Shown here: one piece after another, positions 1 to 41,874 of the stretch
Layout: every line of letters begins with the position of its first letter
How positions within the stretch are numbered: position 1 is the first letter of the stretch
Source: a phage
Sequence record: OZ346228.1
Strand: one strand, 5' to 3'
Length of the DNA stretch: 64,000 nucleotides
Translations under genes and position numbers: made by a program
Notes under the pieces: model-generated
Databases searched by the model: none
What the model saw: the letters and a program-made list of their open reading frames with translations, nothing else
What the model was told of the DNA's origin: nothing

Positions 1-1463
1 ACTGTGGATGTGCAAACGCAGTAGATACTTTTGCAAACAATGAGAAATTTATCCGTAGCTACGGAACAGTGGTCCTTGCAATGGACAACGATGCGGCTAA
101 CGAGGTAGAGAAGCAAAAACACGTTATCAAAGGTGTTGAAGCCACACATAATATTGCAGCATTTTTGATGGCTGACAACGTTTACCACGTGGAATATCCT
201 GGCGAGGTAAACGACCCTGATGGTGTAAAAGATATCCGTGACATGCTGAAGGCTAAAAAGCTGGAAGATATTGTAAACATGTTCCGGCATCCTGTTAAGT
301 ATGTGCCTGATGCTGTGTCGGATTTAGAAGACTTCTCTATCGAATCTTTGCGGAAAAAGACTTCCAACGGGGTAGATATCAGCGCAGAGTTTCCAAAACT
401 GCAAAAAATGCTAAAAGGCTTGCACAAAGGGACACTCGTAATGCTTACAGGTCCATCAGGAGGTGGTAAAACAACTGTAGCCAAAAAACTGGAACACTGT
501 ATTGCAAGATACCTAATGGACCCGACATGTCCAAAGGCCGATGACTACGAAGAGGATGATCGTCTATGCATGATTCATCTTGAGGAGGACCCAGAGGAAG
601 CAATTAACTCCTTGTATGCAAACCAGTTAGGGTTTGATGTTAAAGAGTTTGTTGAAGATCCTAGCCAGTTTTTAACTGATCAAGAACATGCAGAGATTCA
701 CCAATCATGGGCAAAAGCTGGAAAAATCAAAGTGTTCAAACATTTCGGGTCTATTCCAGTGGACGAGTTGATTACCAAGCTTAAGCAAATGGTCTGCCTG
801 TACCATTGTCGCTATATTGTGCTGGATCACCTGTCTATGGTAATTTCAGGGCTTAATGTTAAAGATGAGCGAAAAGAACTGGACATGGCTATGACTCAGC
901 TGGCTGCGTTTTGTAAGCAGTTTAACGTGTTTATCTTGGTGATCGCTCACCTCAAACGTACAGAGATTGTGCCTCCTAAGGACAAGGATGGTAACCCATT
1001 ACCTTTCTGGTATCCTGTGCGAAAAGAGAATTTGCGAGGATCGGCTGGGCTTGAACAGTTGAGTTGGGTAGTCATAGGTGTCGAGGCCGAAGAAATGGTG
1101 GATCGTTCTCGTGGGCGTGTCCGTCTGGTAGGTCTTAAAAACCGTCCAGCAAAAACTTTAGGTATTGCTGACACTTTAGTTATGGACCCACATACAGGTA
1201 AGTTCCATGATGCCAGTAATTGGTACTGGGACAAAGAAATGCAGATGTTTACAGACGGAGAAGGTGGGGAGGTTGTTTGGAGACCTCAGGCCATGTTTGA
1301 GGACCAAGAGCATGCAGTTGTAGAAACACCTATGGGCAAGGTTGTAGCCGATAAGGTTGTAACTCCTACTATTAAGCCTGTTGACACGCAGGAAGACCTT
1401 CAGTACGATGATCCATCCTCTGATCCGGTCCCCGGTTTTGAGGATGATGAAACACCTTTTTAA
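1..1463 (+). CDS. DNA primase/helicase, T7 gp4-like (5' end upstream of window)
   Basis: Frame open from nt 3 with no start; TOPRIM-like VVLAMDNDAAN, Walker A LTGPSGGGKTT, helicase-like body; acidic C-terminus ending DDETPF. Confidence 0.85.
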   Translation, partial: CGCANAVDTFANNEKFIRSYGTVVLAMDNDAANEVEKQKHVIKGVEATHNIAAFLMADNVYHVEYPGEVNDPDGVKDIRDMLKAKKLEDIVNMFRHPVKYVPDAVSDLEDFSIESLRKKTSNGVDISAEFPKLQKMLKGLHKGTLVMLTGPSGGGKTTVAKKLEHCIARYLMDPTCPKADDYEEDDRLCMIHLEEDPEEAINSLYANQLGFDVKEFVEDPSQFLTDQEHAEIHQSWAKAGKIKVFKHFGSIPVDELITKLKQMVCLYHCRYIVLDHLSMVISGLNVKDERKELDMAMTQLAAFCKQFNVFILVIAHLKRTEIVPPKDKDGNPLPFWYPVRKENLRGSAGLEQLSWVVIGVEAEEMVDRSRGRVRLVGLKNRPAKTLGIADTLVMDPHTGKFHDASNWYWDKEMQMFTDGEGGEVVWRPQAMFEDQEHAVVETPMGKVVADKVVTPTIKPVDTQEDLQYDDPSSDPVPGFEDDETPF

Positions 1464-1521
1464 TGTTTAACAAAGAGTGGGAGGGGTAGTACAACCGCCT
1501 CCCCTTTAAGGAGAACTGTAT

Positions 1522-3945
1522 ATGAGCATGTGGTCGTTCGACTTTGAGTCATCCGGTTTGCTGGAAGACCCAGATCTTTATTATCACTGCGGCCTGTTTA
1601 AAGAGCTGAATAAGAACCGTTTTATGCTGTTCCTTCCTCTAAATGACCGCACACACTACTCCGAGGAGGATATAGAAAAGGCTAAGAACTTCATTCTGGC
1701 AAAGAAAACTCTTTATAAAGATTTTGAAGTTCGCATAGCAGATTTTTCAGAGTTGGAAGGTTGGCTTACAGGAAATTCTGACTGGTCACCAACAGCTTTG
1801 AACTGCCATAACTGCTACAGTTATGACTTTATGCTGATGGAAAGATTATCTGGTATTCATTTTGATATGTTCCGTGATCCTAAGTGTATGGGGACTATCA
1901 ACGATCACCAGGTTAACCTGTTTGATACGTTGGCGATGAGCCGAATCTTGTGGCCTGATCGCCCTTTACCAAAAGGTTGTCCGGACTCTGTATTCAACCC
2001 GGTTACTAAGAAAATGCAGCCTGTTGGTCCTCACGGCCTTATGGCATGGGGCTACGCCCTTGGTAACCAGAAAGTTCAAATTGATGACTGGCGCGATCTT
2101 CCGTTATGGAAGTATGTGGATCGTGTATTTGAGGACGTTATCATCCAGGAGCTGCTCTGGAAAGAGCTGGTAGCGGAATCAAAAGGTGTATTCTACGGCA
2201 AATCTGACATGCAGAACTTTATGTACGATCCTGCCAAAGAGAAGCCGAAAGGGTTCAAGAAGATCACCTGGAAGAACGCATTACGTCGAGGCATGTTGCA
2301 GCACTTCCTGATGGAGCTGCAGGCCCGTCAGGGTGTATACTTCGACATAGATGGGGCTATTGCTTTACGTGACCGCTGCGATGCGTGGATGAAAGAGATC
2401 GCTGATCGTGTTGAACCACAACTGCCTTTAAAAGAGCTGTCAATGTCTCAGCGGCCCAAGTTCCCTGAAAAGCCGTTTAACCAAGATGGGACAATCTCTA
2501 ATAATGGTTGGAAATGGTTAAAAGATAAGCTTGGCTATCCTGTGGACATGAGTGCTTTAGAGTTCAAAGCCCCACCTAAGCGAGCATTTACCTCTACAGG
2601 AGATGTCAGTAAGATGGGGATAAAATGGTGTGAAGAGATGGGCTGCAAAGACCACGATAAGATGGCTGATTTCTTGAGAGGTTATATTAAGGGCACCTCC
2701 ACACCACAACCTTTACCTAAAGAGCTGATGGATCAGGCAATAAGCGATCTGCAACAGAAGCGAATGCCTGACTGCAAGATACCTATGAAAATCAGCAATC
2801 AGGACGACATTAAGCGATACCTGATCAGTGCTGGTTGGCTTCCGACAATGTGGAGAACTAAGGATGTAACTAAGGACAGCAAGAAGAAAGCTCTACCTGA
2901 TGCAGATGTTGATGCACGAGTATATGCATACATGGACGAGCTTTTAGAGTCAGAGTATTGTGACCTAATTATCAACTTCTGGAACAAAACTGATGCTAAG
3001 TTTCAGACAACAGTGCACAAGTTCCGAAGCTTTCCTAACTCCGAAAGGATTAAAAAGGAAGTGTTCGGGAAAATACGCAGAAAAGCCAGGGCACTTATTA
3101 CTTCTCCGCAACTGAAAGATACGTTTGGACACCTATGTCCGAATCTTGAAAAATTGAACGGAGAGATGGCTAAAGATATCGTCTTGTGGTTATCATTGCG
3201 AAACCGCAGATCGGTCCTTGATCCAATCAAGGAGGATAAGGTTGATACTGGTCTTCTTAATCACCCACGTTTGAAGATTGACCATAAGCTTCCTGCTAAA
3301 AGCTCTGGATTAACAAACACTTCCCGACAGAAACACAGTATTTGTGCAAACATGCCTAAACCATCTCCTAAAGTGGTTATGGGTAAAGAGATGCGTAGCT
3401 TGTGGGGTGTTCCTCCTGGATACTTTGAGATCGGTATTGACGGGTCCAACTTAGAGCAGCTTATCGGGGCTTGGGGTGCCTTTGAGTTCGACAACGGCTT
3501 GTACTATGATGTTGTAAGTAACGGGGACGCACACCAAAACAATGCTGAGGCATATACAAAAGTAGCAGGCAGAGAGGTGTCTCGTAACGACGGTAAACCT
3601 ATCACGTATGGGGTTATGTACGGGGCACAAAAAGATAAAGTTGCAGATATGCTGGATATCTCCCCAGAGTTGGGGCAAAGGGTGATCGATGCACTTTGGG
3701 ATGCCAACCCAGGTCTTAAGGGGCGCAAAGAGGATCTGGAGAAATTCTGGGAAGCAACAGGTAAGAAGTTTATCTACTCTTTTGATGGTCATGCTATCTG
3801 GACCCGATCTAAACACTCTTTACTTAATGCATACCAACAAAATGGCGGCGCATCGTTGTGTGACTTAGTTGGGATACTCATGCACCATCAAATGGTGAAG
3901 CGTGGGTGGTACGATGAAGGTGTTCGTCGTATTATCTATTACCAT
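1522..3945 (+). CDS. DNA polymerase family A (T7 gp5-like), exon 1
   Basis: RBS AAGGAGA; N-terminal exo motif FDFESSG, HGLMAWGYALG region, motif A IDGSNLEQL, motif B KPITYGVMYGAQ; frame stops 2 codons after ..IIYYH, before any HDE motif C. Confidence 0.85.
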
Positions 3946-4787
3946 AAATAACATTGTGGCTTCGTGCAGTGATGCACGTCGAAAACCTCTTTAATTGACG
4001 GGAAGGCTAAGTTGACTTTTACACCTAAACATGGTAAAAGCTCAATATGCTAATCCGCAGCGAAGACTAAAGGGGTGTAGTTAAAATGGCTAGATCAGTT
4101 GAGTATCACGGATATACCGTGTTTGATGATGGAACAATACCTTTATCGAAACGTGATCATACAACAATGTTTTGTTTTGATAATGGTCGAGGTTACCTTT
4201 GCGTAACCATGTTCATCGAGGGGAAGCAGTGCACAAAAGGTGTCCACCACTTGGTTGCTGAATGCTTTGTATCAAACCCTGATCCTGAAAGGCTCACATG
4301 GGTGAACCATAAGGACGGAAACAAATACAACAATGCATACTGGAACCTTGAATGGACCACCCCTGGTGGAAATATCAAACACGCTTATGATAATGACCTC
4401 AGAGTAAGGCCAGTCGGTGAGTATAATGCCAACGCTGTACTGACCGAGGATGAGGTAACGGAGATTTGCGAACTGTTACAAAGTGGTTTACGACAATGCG
4501 AGATTAGGGATCTTGGGTATCCTTATGAGACGGTCAGAGCCATAAAGCAAAGAAGACAGTGGAAACATATCTCTAAAAACTACACCTGGTAGTAACGTTC
4601 AGAGACTATCGAAAGCATAGCGCCAACATAAATTGGTGCGAAGAAGCGAGTAGAGTAGACCAGCAAGTGCGGTCGAAATGGGAGGTGCCTTGGTAACAAG
4701 GTAGTGAGATAGTCCGATCCATACAGGAAACTGTATGGCTGTGCACGTAATGGTGCGGGGTAGCTTAACGACCTACCTGAACTATTG
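3946..4787 (+). mobile_element. Group I intron interrupting DNA polymerase before motif C
   Basis: Exon 1 ends on U at 3945; AGACTA (P7 5' strand) at 4064-4069; GAGATAGTCCG (P7 3' strand) at 4706-4716; P9-like hairpin CCATACAG-GAAA-CTGTATGG at 4719-4738; terminal G at 4787; joining gives ..YYH-DEYQLQV. Confidence 0.75.
4086..4592 (+). CDS. HNH homing endonuclease, intron-encoded
   Basis: HNH motif WVNHKDGNKYNNAYWNLEW; lies inside the proposed intron between P7 5' and P7 3' elements. Confidence 0.8.
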   Translation: MARSVEYHGYTVFDDGTIPLSKRDHTTMFCFDNGRGYLCVTMFIEGKQCTKGVHHLVAECFVSNPDPERLTWVNHKDGNKYNNAYWNLEWTTPGGNIKHAYDNDLRVRPVGEYNANAVLTEDEVTEICELLQSGLRQCEIRDLGYPYETVRAIKQRRQWKHISKNYTW

Positions 4788-38303: not shown

Positions 38304-38777
38304 CTAGTCTACCTGAACCCAACCGCCTGATACTTTTTTAAACATTCTTTGGTTATCACTGCCTCGGAACGGTTTCTTGGTTGGTAAATCTTTTACATAC
38401 TTACCGTCAATGATGATATCAGCCAGTTTAATAACATCACTAGAGATATGGTCAAATGTGAACCCAGTATATACAAGAATAGTTTTCTTGTCACCAAATT
38501 TTTCCTTAATTTTCTCCATCAGGCTAATAATATCTGGCTCATTATAGTATGCTAAGGGTTCTCCACCCAGTAGAGAGATACCGCACACAGACGGGTTATC
38601 TAAATCTGACAAGATTTTTTGCAAGTCTTCTTCAGTGAACTTCCTCCCCTTATCTTTTGACCAAAATGCCTGATTAAAGCAACCAGGGCAAGCGTGTGGG
38701 CACCCAGATACCCACAAGGCAGTTCTAATACCTGGTCCTTCGGTGTAAGATATTTCTGTGTATCCAGCAATGTTCAT
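38304..38777 (-). CDS. nrdG: anaerobic ribonucleotide reductase activating protein
   Basis: Radical-SAM-like CPHACPGC cluster; directly downstream of nrdD. Confidence 0.75.
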   Translation of the reverse strand: MNIAGYTEISYTEGPGIRTALWVSGCPHACPGCFNQAFWSKDKGRKFTEEDLQKILSDLDNPSVCGISLLGGEPLAYYNEPDIISLMEKIKEKFGDKKTILVYTGFTFDHISSDVIKLADIIIDGKYVKDLPTKKPFRGSDNQRMFKKVSGGWVQVD

Positions 38778-38953: not shown

Positions 38954-40216
38954 TCAGCAACCACAACTTCCGTAGTGCTTAACTCGCTCGATAACTTCCG
39001 CTTGCTTACCTTTATTGTAAGGACGGGAGTTAGGACTGGAAAGGTATCCAGACACACGTCGAATTACACTGATCGTTCCCTCTTCATGGTTTCCACACTC
39101 TGGGCATACAAAGCCTTTAGCTGTTGCACTGAACTCACCAGAGAAACCACACTTGAGACATTTATCCACAGGTTGGTTAATACCAAAATACATAATGTGT
39201 TTATACCCGAAGTCAACAAGAGCCTCTAAAGCATCCAGGTTGTTTTTCAGGTTAGGTGTTTCTACGTATCCGATGTTGCCACCAGAGGATATCATAGCAA
39301 AACCTTCTTCATACTCCCACTTATCAAAAGGAGAGCTATTGATCCATACTGGCTGATGGAAACTGTTGGTGAGATATTCATGCTCGTGCTTCAACACTTC
39401 AGGATATTCACGATCCAGACAGGTTGCAGCTTTATAGCATAGACTCTCAGAAGGGGTGCCGTACAAACTAAACGCTAGTCTACTTTTCTTCTTGTATCGC
39501 TCACAAGCATCTCTCATGTGCTGAAGTATTCCAAGAGCTAAAGCCTTGTCACCCTCTCTGCCCAAAATCTGACAGGTTTCATACACACCAATATACCCAA
39601 TACTGATGGAAGCGTACCCGTCATAGAAGAGTTTATCAATACTCTCTTCAGGATCCAGGCGAGCAAGAGCGCCTTCACACCACATGATAGGGTTCTGCCC
39701 TGCCTTAGTGCCTTTCAGACGGTTAACCCTTACAAGGTGAGCTTCATATGCCAAATCCAGATACTCGTCAAGAACGGAAAAGAAATCAACACCTTCCGTC
39801 TTAGCTTTTGCCGCAATCATTGGCAGGTTAAGACTAACAACACCCAAGTTGAATCTGCCGAGGTATTTCTCCTCACCTGTTTCCAAGTCATTGTATTTGC
39901 TAAGAAAACTCCGGCAACCCATGCTCGTTACTTTACCATCTGTCGAGCCTGTCACTTTACGATTTAGTGGAACAGAAACAAAGTCAGGATAAATCCGCTC
40001 TGCAGAGCATTCCAGAGCTAATCGTTTCAAATCATAGTTAGGATCTCCAGGGTTCATGTTGACACCCTCTTCTAGGAAGAACAACACTTTAGGGAACACA
40101 GGTGTGATACGTTCTTCACCAAGACCCATTTTGTGGACTTTCAAGTAGTTTTTGGTAATCATTCTACCAAAGACTGAGGTGTCCAGACCTAAACTTAATG
40201 TGATGAATGGAGTCTG
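38954..40216 (-). CDS. nrdD: anaerobic ribonucleotide reductase NrdD, exon 2
   Basis: QTPFITLSLG.. continues from exon 1; C-terminal CPECG zinc site and glycyl-radical motif RRVSGYL. Confidence 0.8.
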   Translation of the reverse strand, partial: QTPFITLSLGLDTSVFGRMITKNYLKVHKMGLGEERITPVFPKVLFFLEEGVNMNPGDPNYDLKRLALECSAERIYPDFVSVPLNRKVTGSTDGKVTSMGCRSFLSKYNDLETGEEKYLGRFNLGVVSLNLPMIAAKAKTEGVDFFSVLDEYLDLAYEAHLVRVNRLKGTKAGQNPIMWCEGALARLDPEESIDKLFYDGYASISIGYIGVYETCQILGREGDKALALGILQHMRDACERYKKKSRLAFSLYGTPSESLCYKAATCLDREYPEVLKHEHEYLTNSFHQPVWINSSPFDKWEYEEGFAMISSGGNIGYVETPNLKNNLDALEALVDFGYKHIMYFGINQPVDKCLKCGFSGEFSATAKGFVCPECGNHEEGTISVIRRVSGYLSSPNSRPYNKGKQAEVIERVKHYGSCGC

Positions 40217-41013
40217 CTGTCTCCTCCCTGTGTTTCCACAGGGCCAGACTATCTCTTACTCTACTTCAATAAGATAATAACCCTTTATTGTGAGATGCTT
40301 ACCTTCGGCATTTCCTTCGATAGCCCTATGAACGTTACCTACGTTCAAATTTAAGGCTTTTGCACAGGCATAGAGTGAAGGATATTCACCCACCAAGGTT
40401 TTACCTTTGTATGCCTGCACTTTCCTATAGCACTTACCTGGACAAAGTCCTGTTCGGAAAGCATGTCTCTTATTATCTTCCGGCAAAACCCACTCTAGGT
40501 TAGACGGATGATCATTCAATGTATTGCCATCTTTATGATTCACTTCCCAGTTTTCAGGGTCTTCTGGGACATCCGGCAAACAATACAAGGCAACAATCCT
40601 TGAGGTTTGGATTCGAATCTTTTTACCTTTGTGGTTGAAAGAGTACATATAACGGCGTTTAACATGCTTGTTACCTTTTCCATAACCTCCCCACAATATT
40701 GGGTGTAGCATTCCACGTTTTCCGTATACGTTTCCAACCTCATCAATCACATAGTTTGATTCTTCACCATTAAGAATGATCTTTTTCATAGAGCCTCTCC
40801 ATTTCGAAGTTAGTATTTCAACTAACCCCTACACTACTTGGTTCAGAAATGTTTGTCAAGCATTTCTGCCTTTCGTTAGTCGTTACAACCGTTCCAACTC
40901 CTGTAAGAACTAGTCACGGGATTGGCATAGCTTTCGCCTTAGCGTTCCCCGTTAGCCGGATTTACCGACCCCTCTTATGAGGTTAGGAGAGTTTTACAAC
41001 GGCCAGTTTGTTA
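40217..41013 (-). mobile_element. Group I intron in nrdD
   Basis: On - strand: exon 1 ends on U; AACGGGGAAC, CAATCCCGUG, CGACUAACG (P7 5'), GAGAUAGUCUGG (P7 3'), P9 hairpin CCCUGUG-GAAA-CACAGGG, terminal G. Confidence 0.75.
40256..40789 (-). CDS. HNH homing endonuclease, intron-encoded
   Basis: HNH motif EVNHKDGNTLNDHPSNLEW; inside nrdD intron. Confidence 0.8.
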   Translation of the reverse strand: MKKIILNGEESNYVIDEVGNVYGKRGMLHPILWGGYGKGNKHVKRRYMYSFNHKGKKIRIQTSRIVALYCLPDVPEDPENWEVNHKDGNTLNDHPSNLEWVLPEDNKRHAFRTGLCPGKCYRKVQAYKGKTLVGEYPSLYACAKALNLNVGNVHRAIEGNAEGKHLTIKGYYLIEVE

Positions 41014-41874
41014 ACCGTTGACAGAAGTTAACGTGTTGATTTGATAGAGCAAAGTCTGCATGCTGTCAAATACGTCTTTATCTGTCATTTGCATTGCAAC
41101 AGTTTCAGCATCCGGCAACCAATGTTCCTGGCAAAATTTAAGGTTCTTCTCATAGGTTGCTTCAGCATACTGTGCCAGATAATGATCAATATGGCTCATA
41201 GTCTGACCACCATATTGAGCACTAGCTACCGCACTAGAGATTTGGCTAAGGATTGTTGTTGCAACCCCTATTGACTTCGGCTTACTGACATGGGCGTTAC
41301 CAATGTTGAATCCGTTTTCCAACATATCTGGATAATTTACCAAACAACAGTTTGTTAACGGACTGATCAAGTAGTCAAGATCATGCACATGGATGAATCC
41401 TTTATTGTGCTCTTCGGAGACACGGTCTGGCAGGATCTGTGTTGATGCAAGGTGTTTGCTAAGAATACCTGCAAGCAGGTCGCGATGAGTGTGTACATGA
41501 TTAGTAGGCTTATTTGCGTTTTCTTTTGTAAATTCATCACAAGTTCGATCCAAGAAGCCACTAATATCTGCAAGCAGTTTTCCACCTGCCTCTCTGTTAT
41601 TATCTCTTGTCTGTCTATACTGGATGTATTCTCTGGCTGCACATTTTAAACCCATATCCATAAGAGCATCTTCAACAAGGATATGGATATTTTTTACAGA
41701 GATCGTGCACTGGTCGGTTGGTAGATTGTTAGCAACAACTTCATTAACCGCGCAGGCGATCCGGTAAGCTTCTTCTTCAGTATGTCCAGACTCAAGTAAG
41801 GCGGACTCTGCCGCCTTGATCACCTTAATTCCGTTATAGAACTCTTCTCTACCGTCCCGTTTTACAACTTTCAC
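41014..41874 (-). CDS. nrdD: anaerobic ribonucleotide reductase NrdD, exon 1
   Basis: ATP-cone-like start MKVVKRDGREEFYNGIKV; GFIHVHDLDY..TNCCLVNYPDMLENGF; ends ..NTLTSVNG at splice site. Confidence 0.8.

Follow-up and report, generated by a model that had tools for sequence, protein, structure and literature searches.

A putative mobile group I intron with an HNH endonuclease gene in nrdD of Vequintavirus coliphages

Introduction

Group I introns that carry homing endonuclease genes have been known from phage genes of nucleotide metabolism since T4, and the existence of a further one in nrdD will therefore hardly surprise specialists. The described system that shares this host gene is the T4 nrdD (sunY) intron, whose ORF follows the catalytic core, within a peripheral loop of the 3' part, and encodes I-TevII, a member of the GIY-YIG family. 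T4 also provides a precedent for an endonuclease ribosome-binding site that is hidden in RNA structure (PMC2988022). The enzyme type considered below has its counterpart in the DNA polymerase intron of Bacillus phage SPO1, likewise a phage group I intron with an enzyme of the HNH_3 type of about 175 aa, namely the HNH nicking homing endonuclease I-HmuI (1U3E); the host gene there is pol rather than nrdD.

Among myoviruses related to the rV5-like phages, Pectobacterium phage CB7 (genus Certrevirus) harbors HNH-containing introns in the terminase, pol, nrdA and nrdB genes, which splice in vivo according to RT-PCR (PMC7344957). Its nrdD, compared here by description only, is uninterrupted. For rV5, of the same genus as the phage analysed here, Kropinski et al. 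2013 described intervening sequences in another gene, the terminase, including a homing endonuclease (PMC3606486); their paper makes no mention of nrdD introns. Close derivatives of rV5, for example rV5_ev156, are intronless at the nrdD site described below.

Here we analyse an insertion in nrdD within a stretch of 64,000 nt of phage DNA (record OZ346228.1), in the following denoted as the window. The phage is a Vequintavirus (rV5-like) coliphage and is 99.7% identical to phage magaca. With a probability of roughly 90% we take the insertion to be a mobile group I intron that belongs to the phage IA2 type, separates the codons for Gly and Gln in the conserved NrdD sequence NG|QTPF and is probably removed by splicing. 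Its ORF is situated in L8 and encodes an enzyme of the HNH family, in contrast to the position and the GIY-YIG enzyme of T4. The element represents a new, uncharacterised case of a well-known selfish element, and a literature search found no report of its splicing.

Results and Discussion

The interrupted nrdD gene

All features are encoded on the minus strand. Exon 1 of nrdD (41874..41014, 861 nt, 287 codons) begins with a GTG start at 41874, which overlaps the stop of the glutaredoxin gene, and ends with ...GUC AAC GGU, the last codon (GGT) reaching to 41014 and an in-frame UAA following directly. Exon 2 (40216..38954, 1263 nt, 420 codons plus stop) starts with the codons CAG ACU CCA (QTP...). 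The sequence between both exons comprises exactly 797 nt (41013..40217); it is preceded by a U, begins with the UAA stop and has as its last nucleotide a G at 40217 (omega-G). These boundaries were derived from intronless alleles together with the helix model. When the exons are joined without the 797 nt, an uninterrupted NrdD of 707 aa results, with the junction ..NTLTSVNG|QTPFITLSLG and with ATP-cone (residues 2-91), NRDD and Gly_radical domains; the NRDD profile is matched over positions 1-562 of 562 (E 6.6e-161).

Intronless alleles are continuous and approximately 97% identical across the junction, which reads AACGG-G-CAAACT as compared to AACGGT(797 nt)CAGACT in the window. Excision restores the frame and yields the same NG|QTPF junction as in these alleles. 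Since the intronless alleles lack exactly the 797 nt, the insertion is more than a chance arrangement. The split of nrdD into parts of 287 and 420 aa that join as NG-QTPF, proposed in an earlier note made from the sequence alone, is hence borne out by coordinates and alleles alike.

We note that the majority of GenBank records list nrdD as two separate CDSs plus an HNH gene, so that NrdD is divided into two proteins and the locus is of relevance for annotation; the records of the BASEL collection already give nrdD as a joined CDS. The prevailing annotation would agree with a different explanation, in which a homing endonuclease cassette splits nrdD without any splicing and the two polypeptides assemble, for which the NrdA of Aeromonas phage Aeh1, split by mobE, is cited in the literature as a precedent. 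The immediate stop after exon 1 and an AUG at 40162, the first one in frame within exon 2, are in line with such an arrangement. However, the 17 codons that precede this AUG in exon 2 are conserved with T4 NrdD, and the conserved residues QTPFITLSLGLDTSVFGR upstream of it would be lost from a separately translated second half. The boundaries are also those expected of such an intron, with U as the last exon nucleotide and G as the last intron nucleotide. Furthermore, the ORF is surrounded by a complete, covarying group I core (see below), which is kept even in an ORF-less allele of 257 nt, where a mere spacer would not need it. We therefore consider a split gene to be highly improbable.

Secondary structure of the intron

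The structural model was evaluated in three diverged lineages: the ORF-bearing form of 797 nt (W), the ORF-less allele of 257 nt (S), and a third lineage (L026). In all three, P3, P4, P5, P6, P7, P8 and P9 occur in the canonical strand order with a P3/P7 pseudoknot, and the 76-77 modelled pairs (61 in L026) contain 0-1 mismatches per lineage. Two-sided changes among the lineages are found in P1, P3, P6a, P7.2, P8 and P9, and within groups all six substitutions at paired positions (6/6) keep the pairing. In a MAFFT alignment of the ORF-excised mini-introns the region P7.1-P8 could not be aligned between alleles; the helices were therefore checked per lineage by script rather than by formal pair counting. 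An unconstrained MFE fold recovers P1, the long-range P3, P4-P6a, P7.1, P7.2, P8 and P9, missing only the pseudoknotted P7, and the folding z-score of the ORF-less allele is -3.8 compared to shuffled sequences.

P1 is formed by the last seven exon nucleotides CAACGGU (41014..41020) and the internal guide sequence GCCGUUG (40997..41003), and the splice site is marked by a U.G wobble. This helix covaries: the pairing is AAACGGU/GCCGUUU in S and UAACGGU/GCCGUUA in L026, such that pair -7 is A-U in the former and U-A in the latter. By direct reading, a CUG just 5' of the guide is able to pair with the CAG of exon 2 to form P10. The intron has no P2; instead P1 is connected by UAAAA to the 5' strand of P3 (CUCUCC, 40986..40991), a placement as in T4 sunY. 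The P3 pairing with its partner GGAGAG (40795..40800) is replaced by CUCUGC/GCAGGG in S and by CUCUUC/GGAGAG in L026.

The 5' strand of P3 does not adjoin J3/4 and P4. Two extra hairpins, CCUC-AUAA-GAGG and UCGG-UAAAU-CCGG (40956..40982, 27 nt), separate CUCUCC from UA-ACGGGG, a layout that departs from the Rfam consensus as well as from T4 sunY. Both hairpins are recovered in the MFE fold and have counterparts in S (CCUUA-GUA-UGAGG and UCAGC-UGAUC-GCUGG). A canonical P3, whose 5' strand adjoins J3/4 according to the Rfam alignment, was rejected because in both alleles the segment in question lacks a complementary sequence further downstream and forms a covarying local hairpin. A literature search on hairpins between P3 and P4 retrieved nothing relevant.

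The domain P4-P5-P5a-P6-P6a (40888..40952) consists of P4 (ACGGGG/UCCCGU), an L5a of sequence GAAA, and P6a (GUUCUUAC/GUUGGAAC; GCUUCAC/GUGAGGC in S). It is followed by J6/7 (UGUAAC) and the 5' strand of P7 (GACUA, 40877..40881). Between P7 and the 3' strand of P3 are located P7.1 (CAGAAAUG/CAUUUCUG, 40868..40844) and P7.2 (GGGGUUAGU/ACUAACUUC, 40829..40806), together spanning 40806..40868, with a GUA linker before P7.2 and GAAAU before P3'; equivalents of these elements exist in S and L026. P7.1 and P7.2 in this position are a hallmark of IA2 introns, as in T4 td and Twort, and the subgroup is reportedly defined in Michel and Westhof 1990 by P7.1/P7.2 with a GUA linker and a GAAAY before P3'. 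J8/7 (AAGAGA) and the 3' strand of P7 (UAGUC) occupy 40247..40257, and P9 is formed by CCCUGUG-GAAA-CACAGGG (40226..40243), with one pair altered on both sides in S (CCUUGUG/CAUAAGG). The core elements listed in the earlier note, namely AACGGGGAAC, CAAUCCCGUG, the P7 strands (within CGACUAACG and GAGAUAGUCUGG) and the P9 hairpin, are all present in the sequence.

The model suggests the following reaction. Within the nrdD pre-mRNA, the exon end CAACGGU and the guide GCCGUUG would form P1 with its U.G pair at the splice site, the core P3-P9 would bind guanosine at P7, and two transesterifications would excise the 797 nt up to and including G40217 and ligate the exons to give the message for the 707-aa NrdD.

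The only Rfam family matched is RF00028. The ORF-less allele aligns with the full model end to end at 29.8 bits (E 1e-4), with J6/7-P7, J8/7-P7' and P9 placed at high posterior probability, whereas the intron of the window scores 27.8 bits and is misaligned through the ORF. At the guanosine-binding site, UGUAACGACUA and AAGAGAUAGUC fit the consensus gGUUCAaAGACUA and AAGAUAUAGUC, again with high posterior probability. Both scores are below the gathering threshold of 50 bits, so that a scan of the whole window at this threshold returned no Rfam match and RF00028 emerges only in permissive scans. An account of the low scores as typical of proven introns was dropped, since the proven T4 sunY intron reaches 105.3 bits with RF00028 in the same search.

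The sub-threshold score, far under that of T4 sunY, and the unusual layout between P3 and P4 could point to a decayed or splicing-incompetent relic, with nrdD being effectively a pseudogene in its carriers. NrdD is not essential for aerobic growth in the laboratory, and a splicing-dead copy could therefore persist for a while. Such decay is at odds with the near absence of mismatches in three diverged lineages and with stem substitutions that, as far as observed, all preserve pairing. The unusual layout is not confined to this intron either, as it recurs in many other phage introns (the two hairpins before J3/4 are seen in L008, L011, L013 and L026). All examined carriers retain both nrdD exons as open and conserved reading frames, and the HNH ORF appears to be under purifying selection (see below). 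A relic is hence very unlikely.

The HNH endonuclease gene

The P8 loop is filled by an ORF of 177 aa (40256..40789) whose translation signals are part of the ribozyme. The 3' strand of P3, GGAGAG, doubles as its Shine-Dalgarno sequence, 5 nt upstream of the AUG; the last nucleotide of the P8 5' strand (GCUCUA, 40794..40789) is the A of the AUG, and that of the P8 3' strand (UAGAGU, 40263..40258) is the U of the UAA stop. Because the Shine-Dalgarno sequence lies in P3 and the start and stop codons in the P8 stem, the folded ribozyme should hide the ribosome-binding site, and splicing and translation of the endonuclease would therefore compete on one transcript. As structural details, the embedded translation signals and the P3-P4 hairpins can be tested and are of modest interest. 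A consensus promoter scan inside the intron revealed no promoter-like site and lends no support to a candidate promoter consisting of TTGACA in the P7.1 loop, a 17-nt spacing and TAGTGT.

The encoded protein exceeds the Pfam threshold for HNH_3 (PF13392; 29.3 bits with a cutoff of 24.8, ORF residues 78-107), contains the HNH motif VNHKDGN...NLEW...N, and matches PHROG 59. The alignment with I-HmuI covers residues 8-160 of the protein and 8-159 of the enzyme (E 2.7e-4), a remote similarity. The NUMOD-like helix-turn-helix, which in I-HmuI is C-terminal to a DNA-binding sheet and the HNH domain, scores 18.4 bits in the protein with a cutoff of 27 and thus stays under the threshold. From these matches, the protein is an I-HmuI-like HNH endonuclease, with an activity and a target that are presumably those of a homing enzyme acting on nrdD. 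The comparison with FV3 gives 16 differences in synonymous codons and 2 in non-synonymous codons; judged by this ratio, the ORF is under purifying selection. A T4-like IMG/VR contig has an intron at the identical nrdD position, with an ortholog of 46% identity in the corresponding loop, and a search for related loci with the HNH alignment yielded partial relatives only. Together with the empty-site alleles and the complete covarying core, the ORF sustains the proposal of the earlier note that nrdD harbors a group I intron with its own HNH gene.

Allelic states and mobility

The intron site is polymorphic. Among about 121 Vequintavirus records, the site is empty in approximately 80, contains the ORF-less intron of 257 nt in 14, and the ORF-bearing intron of 797 nt in 28. 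In two carriers compared, the intron differs by 0.4-1.1%, whereas the exons, adjacent 50 nt included, differ by 4-10%, a contrast that indicates recent lateral spread of the intron. According to the earlier note, two introns with similar cores in pol and nrdD would point to active homing in this lineage. The similarity was not supported (see below), but active homing as such is supported on other grounds, as the site is polymorphic and the divergence of the intron is 5- to 20-fold lower than that of the exons.

The proposed cycle would proceed as follows. In a mixed infection, the HNH protein would, by analogy, nick or cut intronless nrdD alleles, and repair from the intron-bearing genome would copy the intron together with roughly 20-30 nt of flanking exon. 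The flanks from -21 to +29 are identical in 7 of the 8 W carriers, the exception being ECML-10 with a C at -13; intronless alleles differ within this interval at -1 and +3 only, where rV5_ev156 and JeffSchatz have G and A, respectively. The flanks of the ORF-less carrier HeinrichReichert show 9 synonymous changes.

The ORF-less and the ORF-bearing alleles are approximately 86% identical over 139 nt at the 5' end and 45 nt at the 3' end, their P7.1-P8 modules are unalignable, and P3 shows a compensating change. It is conceivable, if rather doubtful, that the element constitutes a structural variant so far undescribed among phage IA2 introns, in that it lacks P2, has a two-hairpin domain between the P3 5' strand and J3/4, and carries an L8 ORF with P3 as Shine-Dalgarno sequence and P8 as start and stop, such that folding and translation would be mutually exclusive. 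If so, the allele comparison would suggest that the endonuclease arrived with its own piece of the ribozyme core.

One and the same nrdD site is thus empty, occupied by an ORF-less intron or occupied by an ORF-bearing intron within a single, densely sampled and easily grown coliphage genus. The BASEL phages JeffSchatz (intronless), HeinrichReichert (ORF-less intron) and MaxBurger (ORF-bearing intron) share E. coli K-12 as a common host. The locus offers a natural system in which homing, co-conversion and the cycle of gain and loss of an endonuclease gene can be followed via simple mixed infections.

Comparison with related introns

The T4 sunY intron and the nrdD intron of the window have in common the start UAAC, the lack of P2, the arrangement P1-UAAAA-P3, and P7.1/P7.2 of the IA2 type, and both interrupt the same conserved region of the same gene. 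The T4 intron interrupts codon Y180 in phase 1, at a position 32 nt upstream of the insertion described here, which separates the codons equivalent to G190 and Q191; T4 sunY has no hairpins between P3 and J3/4, in contrast to the two found here; and the RF00028 scores are very different (105 bits for T4 sunY, about 30 for the nrdD intron). The earlier note had suggested an alignment with T4 introns, and blastn in distant mode gave no T4 match. An origin of the intron as an ortholog of T4 sunY, inherited or transferred, would account for the shared host gene and 5' arrangement, yet it conflicts with the insertion site as well as with the endonuclease family and is the least likely of the explanations considered.

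The intron in pol of the window differs from the nrdD intron in that its ORF is located in P6 instead of P8. Aligning both introns by blastn, as had likewise been proposed, gave no significant similarity (best E 0.025) and hence no specific resemblance of their cores. The HNH proteins of the two introns have in common only an HNH stretch of 64 residues with 42% identity.

A pattern search of IMG/VR that included P7 gave no match, and a looser P4-P5 pattern retrieved 23 viral and 2 genome loci. The P4-P5 core of the nrdD intron is 85-88% identical to those of the pol introns of Bacillus phage S4-2 and Listeria phage LP-114. In both of these the ORF precedes J6/7-P7 and is thus located in P6, whereas the nrdD intron carries it in the P8 loop.

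The nrdD locus and its allelic states

The minus-strand genes around the insertion are arranged in the order nrdB, glutaredoxin, nrdD, small ORF and nrdG. The reading frame of the first nrdD exon extends from a GTG at 41874 to a GGT ending at 41014 and is closed immediately by a UAA (41013..41011), and the second exon continues in frame from 40216 (QTPFITLSLG...) to a stop at 38954, both on the minus strand. The gap between the exons measures exactly 797 nt, and once 41014 is joined to 40216 the coding sequence has 2124 nt (707 codons). Its product comprises an ATP-cone (residues 2-91), a glycyl-radical domain and an NRDD domain matched in full (E = 6.6e-161, profile positions 1-562 of 562). 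The split of nrdD described in the earlier note is therefore confirmed, all short motifs quoted there are found in the window, and the gap does hold an HNH gene (ORF 40789..40256, 177 aa), which scores above the Pfam HNH_3 threshold.

The 3.1 kb around the insertion share 99.7% identity with Escherichia phage magaca and 93-98% with about 120 further rV5-like phages (Vequintavirus). A 400-nt query of both exon ends joined finds a single uninterrupted match (93-98% identity) in rV5_ev156, nimi, PDX, JeffSchatz and many more Vequintavirus genomes. Intronless alleles read AAC GGG CAA ACT and the window AAC GGT (797 nt) CAG ACT, encoding the same protein. The phages bov11CS3, CM1 and HeinrichReichert carry a 257-nt insertion without ORF at the identical position. 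A count over the phage collection gives about 80 records with an empty site, 14 with the 257-nt form (S allele) and 28 with the 797-nt form (W allele). Judged from these alleles, the 797-nt segment is an insertion with exact boundaries.

In the W and S phages of the BASEL collection nrdD is annotated as a joined CDS enclosing a "putative homing endonuclease", the intron boundaries having been set via comparative genomics (PMC8594841); the majority of the remaining records give NrdD as two fragments. Some GenBank records thus already treat the insertion as an intervening sequence; our literature search found no paper on this intron. The rV5 genome paper describes introns in the terminase only (PMC3606486), and in the related phage CB7 HNH introns were shown by RT-PCR to splice, though not in nrdD (PMC7344957).

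We note that the GTG at 41874 overlaps the glutaredoxin stop and yields the complete ATP-cone. The BASEL and phita32 annotations begin nrdD 213 nt downstream (region 41662..41874, minus strand), losing most of this domain. The ORF at 38304..38777 (minus strand) encodes the NrdG radical-SAM activase (Fer4_12, E = 2e-42); the identical gene is labelled 'putative minor capsid protein' in the magaca record.

A covarying group I core

No Rfam family matches at the gathering threshold, and a permissive scan returns RF00028 alone. The window intron scores 27.8 bits, with an alignment wrongly threaded through the ORF. The S allele aligns over the full extent of the model at 29.8 bits (E = 1e-4), and P1, P4-P5, J6/7-P7, J8/7-P7' and P9 are placed at high posterior probability. 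The experimentally proven T4 sunY intron reaches 105 bits in the same search, so the low score of the nrdD intron reflects a real departure from the consensus and not the ORF alone. The Rfam evidence for group I identity is weak; the comparative evidence from related sequences is strong.

Three lineages were compared at the nrdD site: W, S and L026, an intron that occupies the position ..TTNG|QQPF.. in a T4-like IMG/VR contig and whose HNH ORF is 46% identical to that of the window. A script placed all strands of each lineage in the canonical order P1, P3, P4, P5, P5a, P6, P6a, P7, P7.1, P7.2, P3', P8, P7', P9 (P7.1 is absent from L026), giving models of 61-77 pairs with 0-1 mismatches. The helix sequences vary while complementarity is kept. 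For example, P1 is CAACGGU/GCCGUUG in W, AAACGGU/GCCGUUU in S and UAACGGU/GCCGUUA in L026; P3 is CUCUCC/GGAGAG, CUCUGC/GCAGGG and CUCUUC/GGAGAG, and P8 is GCUCUA/UAGAGU, GUCUGA/UCAGGC and AGUAUCU/AGAUAUU, respectively. In W and S, P6a is GUUCUUAC/GUUGGAAC and GCUUCAC/GUGAGGC, and P9 is CCCUGUG/CACAGGG and CCUUGUG/CAUAAGG. Substitutions at paired positions within the W and S groups keep the pair in all six cases. Unconstrained RNAfold recovers these helices, including the long-range P3, with the exception of the pseudoknotted P7, and the fold of the S allele lies 3.8 sd on the stable side of its dinucleotide shuffles. The 5' splice site directly follows a U paired with G, and the final base of the intron is G. 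Between P7 and P3' the intron has P7.1 and P7.2, along with the linkers GUA and GAAAY, an arrangement that presumably places it among the IA2 phage introns such as td, sunY and Twort.

Together with the alleles and an ORF resembling I-HmuI, the covarying core supports the main interpretation of the earlier note: the insertion is, with high confidence, an ordinary mobile group I intron with its own HNH homing endonuclease gene.

On the plus strand, a consensus scan flags the P7.1 hairpin (40844..40868) as terminator-like because a T-rich run follows it; the call is probably incidental.

Two hairpins between P3 and J3/4

The layout from P3 to P4 differs from that of T4 sunY and the Rfam consensus. 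The sunY 5' end reads P1-UAAAA-UCUGCC(P3)-UAAA-ACGGG(P4) and that of nine simpler relatives from IMG/VR and MAGs UAAAA-CUCUCU-UAA-ACGGGG, whereas the window reads UAAAA-CUCUCC-UAA-(CCUCAUAAGAGG GG UCGGUAAAUCCGG C UA)-ACGGGG, with two extra hairpins (40956..40982, minus strand) between the P3 5' strand and J3/4-P4. Both are predicted by the MFE fold and both covary, the S versions being CCUUA-GUA-UGAGG and UCAGC-UGAUC-GCUGG. The segment adjoining J3/4, taken as P3 in the Rfam alignment, has no complementary partner downstream. P3' is complementary to the segment upstream of the hairpins also in Bacillus phage S4-2 and in two further related loci, L011 (AUACCUUU/AAGGGUAU) and L013 (AUCCCU/GGGGAU). 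Hairpins occupy this position in L008, L011, L013, L016, L024, L026 (one only), L030 and L032, and the layout recurs in many phage introns with a common ACGGGGAA..GCCAAUCCCGUG core. A literature search found no published description of such hairpins; we do not claim novelty.

The endonuclease gene and its placement in P8

Residues 8-160 of the HNH ORF align remotely with I-HmuI (PDB 1U3E, E = 2.7e-4), a nicking HNH homing endonuclease encoded by the SPO1 pol intron, and the ORF matches PHROG 59. Among sequenced phages, it is present at at least 98.9% amino-acid identity in the 28 W carriers; the next-best matches reach at most 40% over more than half of the protein, and a single 64-residue HNH stretch reaches 50%. 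Nucleotide differences affect mostly synonymous codons (synonymous/non-synonymous 16/2 against FV3, 6/0 against 10C2, 3/0 against EI-SP-GF), so selection acts on the protein.

The ORF occupies the P8 loop exactly. GGAGAG (40800..40795) doubles as the P3 3' strand and as a Shine-Dalgarno sequence with the AUG 5 nt downstream; the A of this AUG closes the P8 5' strand, the first base (U) of the UAA stop closes the P8 3' strand, and J8/7 comes directly after. L026 likewise reads GGAGAG-AGUAUCU-AUG, and the ORF-less S has GCAGGG in place of GGAGAG. The folded core would thus mask the ribosome-binding site; for T4 intron endonucleases, sequestration of this site in RNA structure is a known control (PMC2988022). 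A scan of the intron interior found no promoter-like site. We infer splicing, endonuclease activity and a competition between translation and folding.

The L026 intron (IMGVR_UViG_3300033120_000502, 3729..4464, minus strand of the locus) lies at the same NG|Q site of a T4-resembling NrdD on an AT-rich contig, also with its HNH ORF in P8; this ORF reads past J8/7, P7' and P9 before its stop.

Mobility and relation to other introns

The window was compared with the W carriers EI-SP-GF, 10C2 and FV3 over 3.1 kb. Divergence is 0.4%, 0.4% and 1.8% in the intron 5' core and 0.6%, 1.1% and 3.4% in the HNH ORF, versus 2.2-10%, 1.1-10% and 2.2-12.8% in the exons, depending on region; in each comparison, the 50 nt of exon adjoining the intron show 4-10% divergence. 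Counted from the insertion point, W carriers are identical from -21 to +29 save one C at -13 (ECML-10) and diverge beyond, and intronless alleles differ from them within this tract solely at -1 (G instead of U) and +3 (A instead of G). In S carriers, nine synonymous changes fall into the 20 nt on either side, and the guide sequence carries a compensating change for the one at -7. The window exons are nearer to intronless rV5_ev156 than to other W carriers. Divergence, flanks and exon kinship together indicate homing, in which the intron spread laterally, and recently, from one diverged nrdD allele to another along with short co-conversion tracts. The active homing proposed earlier for this lineage is supported by site polymorphism, low intron divergence and the shared flank tract; the intron is well preserved and apparently still spreading. 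W and S share their first 139 nt and last ~45 nt at ~86%, and their P7.1-P8 segments are unalignable, which suggests that the endonuclease gene came together with its own stretch of core.

A specific similarity between the cores of the pol and nrdD introns, as put forward in the same note, is not supported. The pol intron, in a family A DNA polymerase-like gene, matches RF00028 at 3936..4737 (plus strand, 39.1 bits) and by eye spans ~3946..4787, with its HNH ORF (4086..4592) in P6, ahead of J6/7-P7. The two introns have no significant nucleotide similarity and their HNH proteins match over 64 residues only; they are therefore two independent acquisitions of one general kind. The pol splice sites, placed by eye, lie after U3945 and before 4788 (..YH|DEYQ..); this intron is td-like with P9.1/P9.2, and its P1 looks short (4 bp).

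Orthology to the T4 nrdD intron was rejected. That intron follows ..UAUGAGU, in phase 1 of codon Y180, and encodes the GIY-YIG enzyme I-TevII, whereas the window intron encodes an HNH protein and is inserted 32 nt further downstream in one conserved region, where T4 has its G190|Q191 boundary.

About 20 GenBank records (MG0656xx) bear the name 'Campylobacter phage' and give C. jejuni as host. Across nrdD they share 95-99% identity with E. coli Vequintavirus genomes, and they include all three intron states; their names or hosts look doubtful. In phages phita32, 'Campylobacter phage C2' and JEP1, nrdD exon 2 holds another insertion, ~760 bp long and containing a 510-nt ORF (1318..2069 in locus L003), at a site that is empty in the window (~39917), so that nrdD of Vequintavirus can carry two introns. 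A td-like core also lies ~500 nt downstream of the first intron in the IMG/VR locus L012, and another further downstream in L026.
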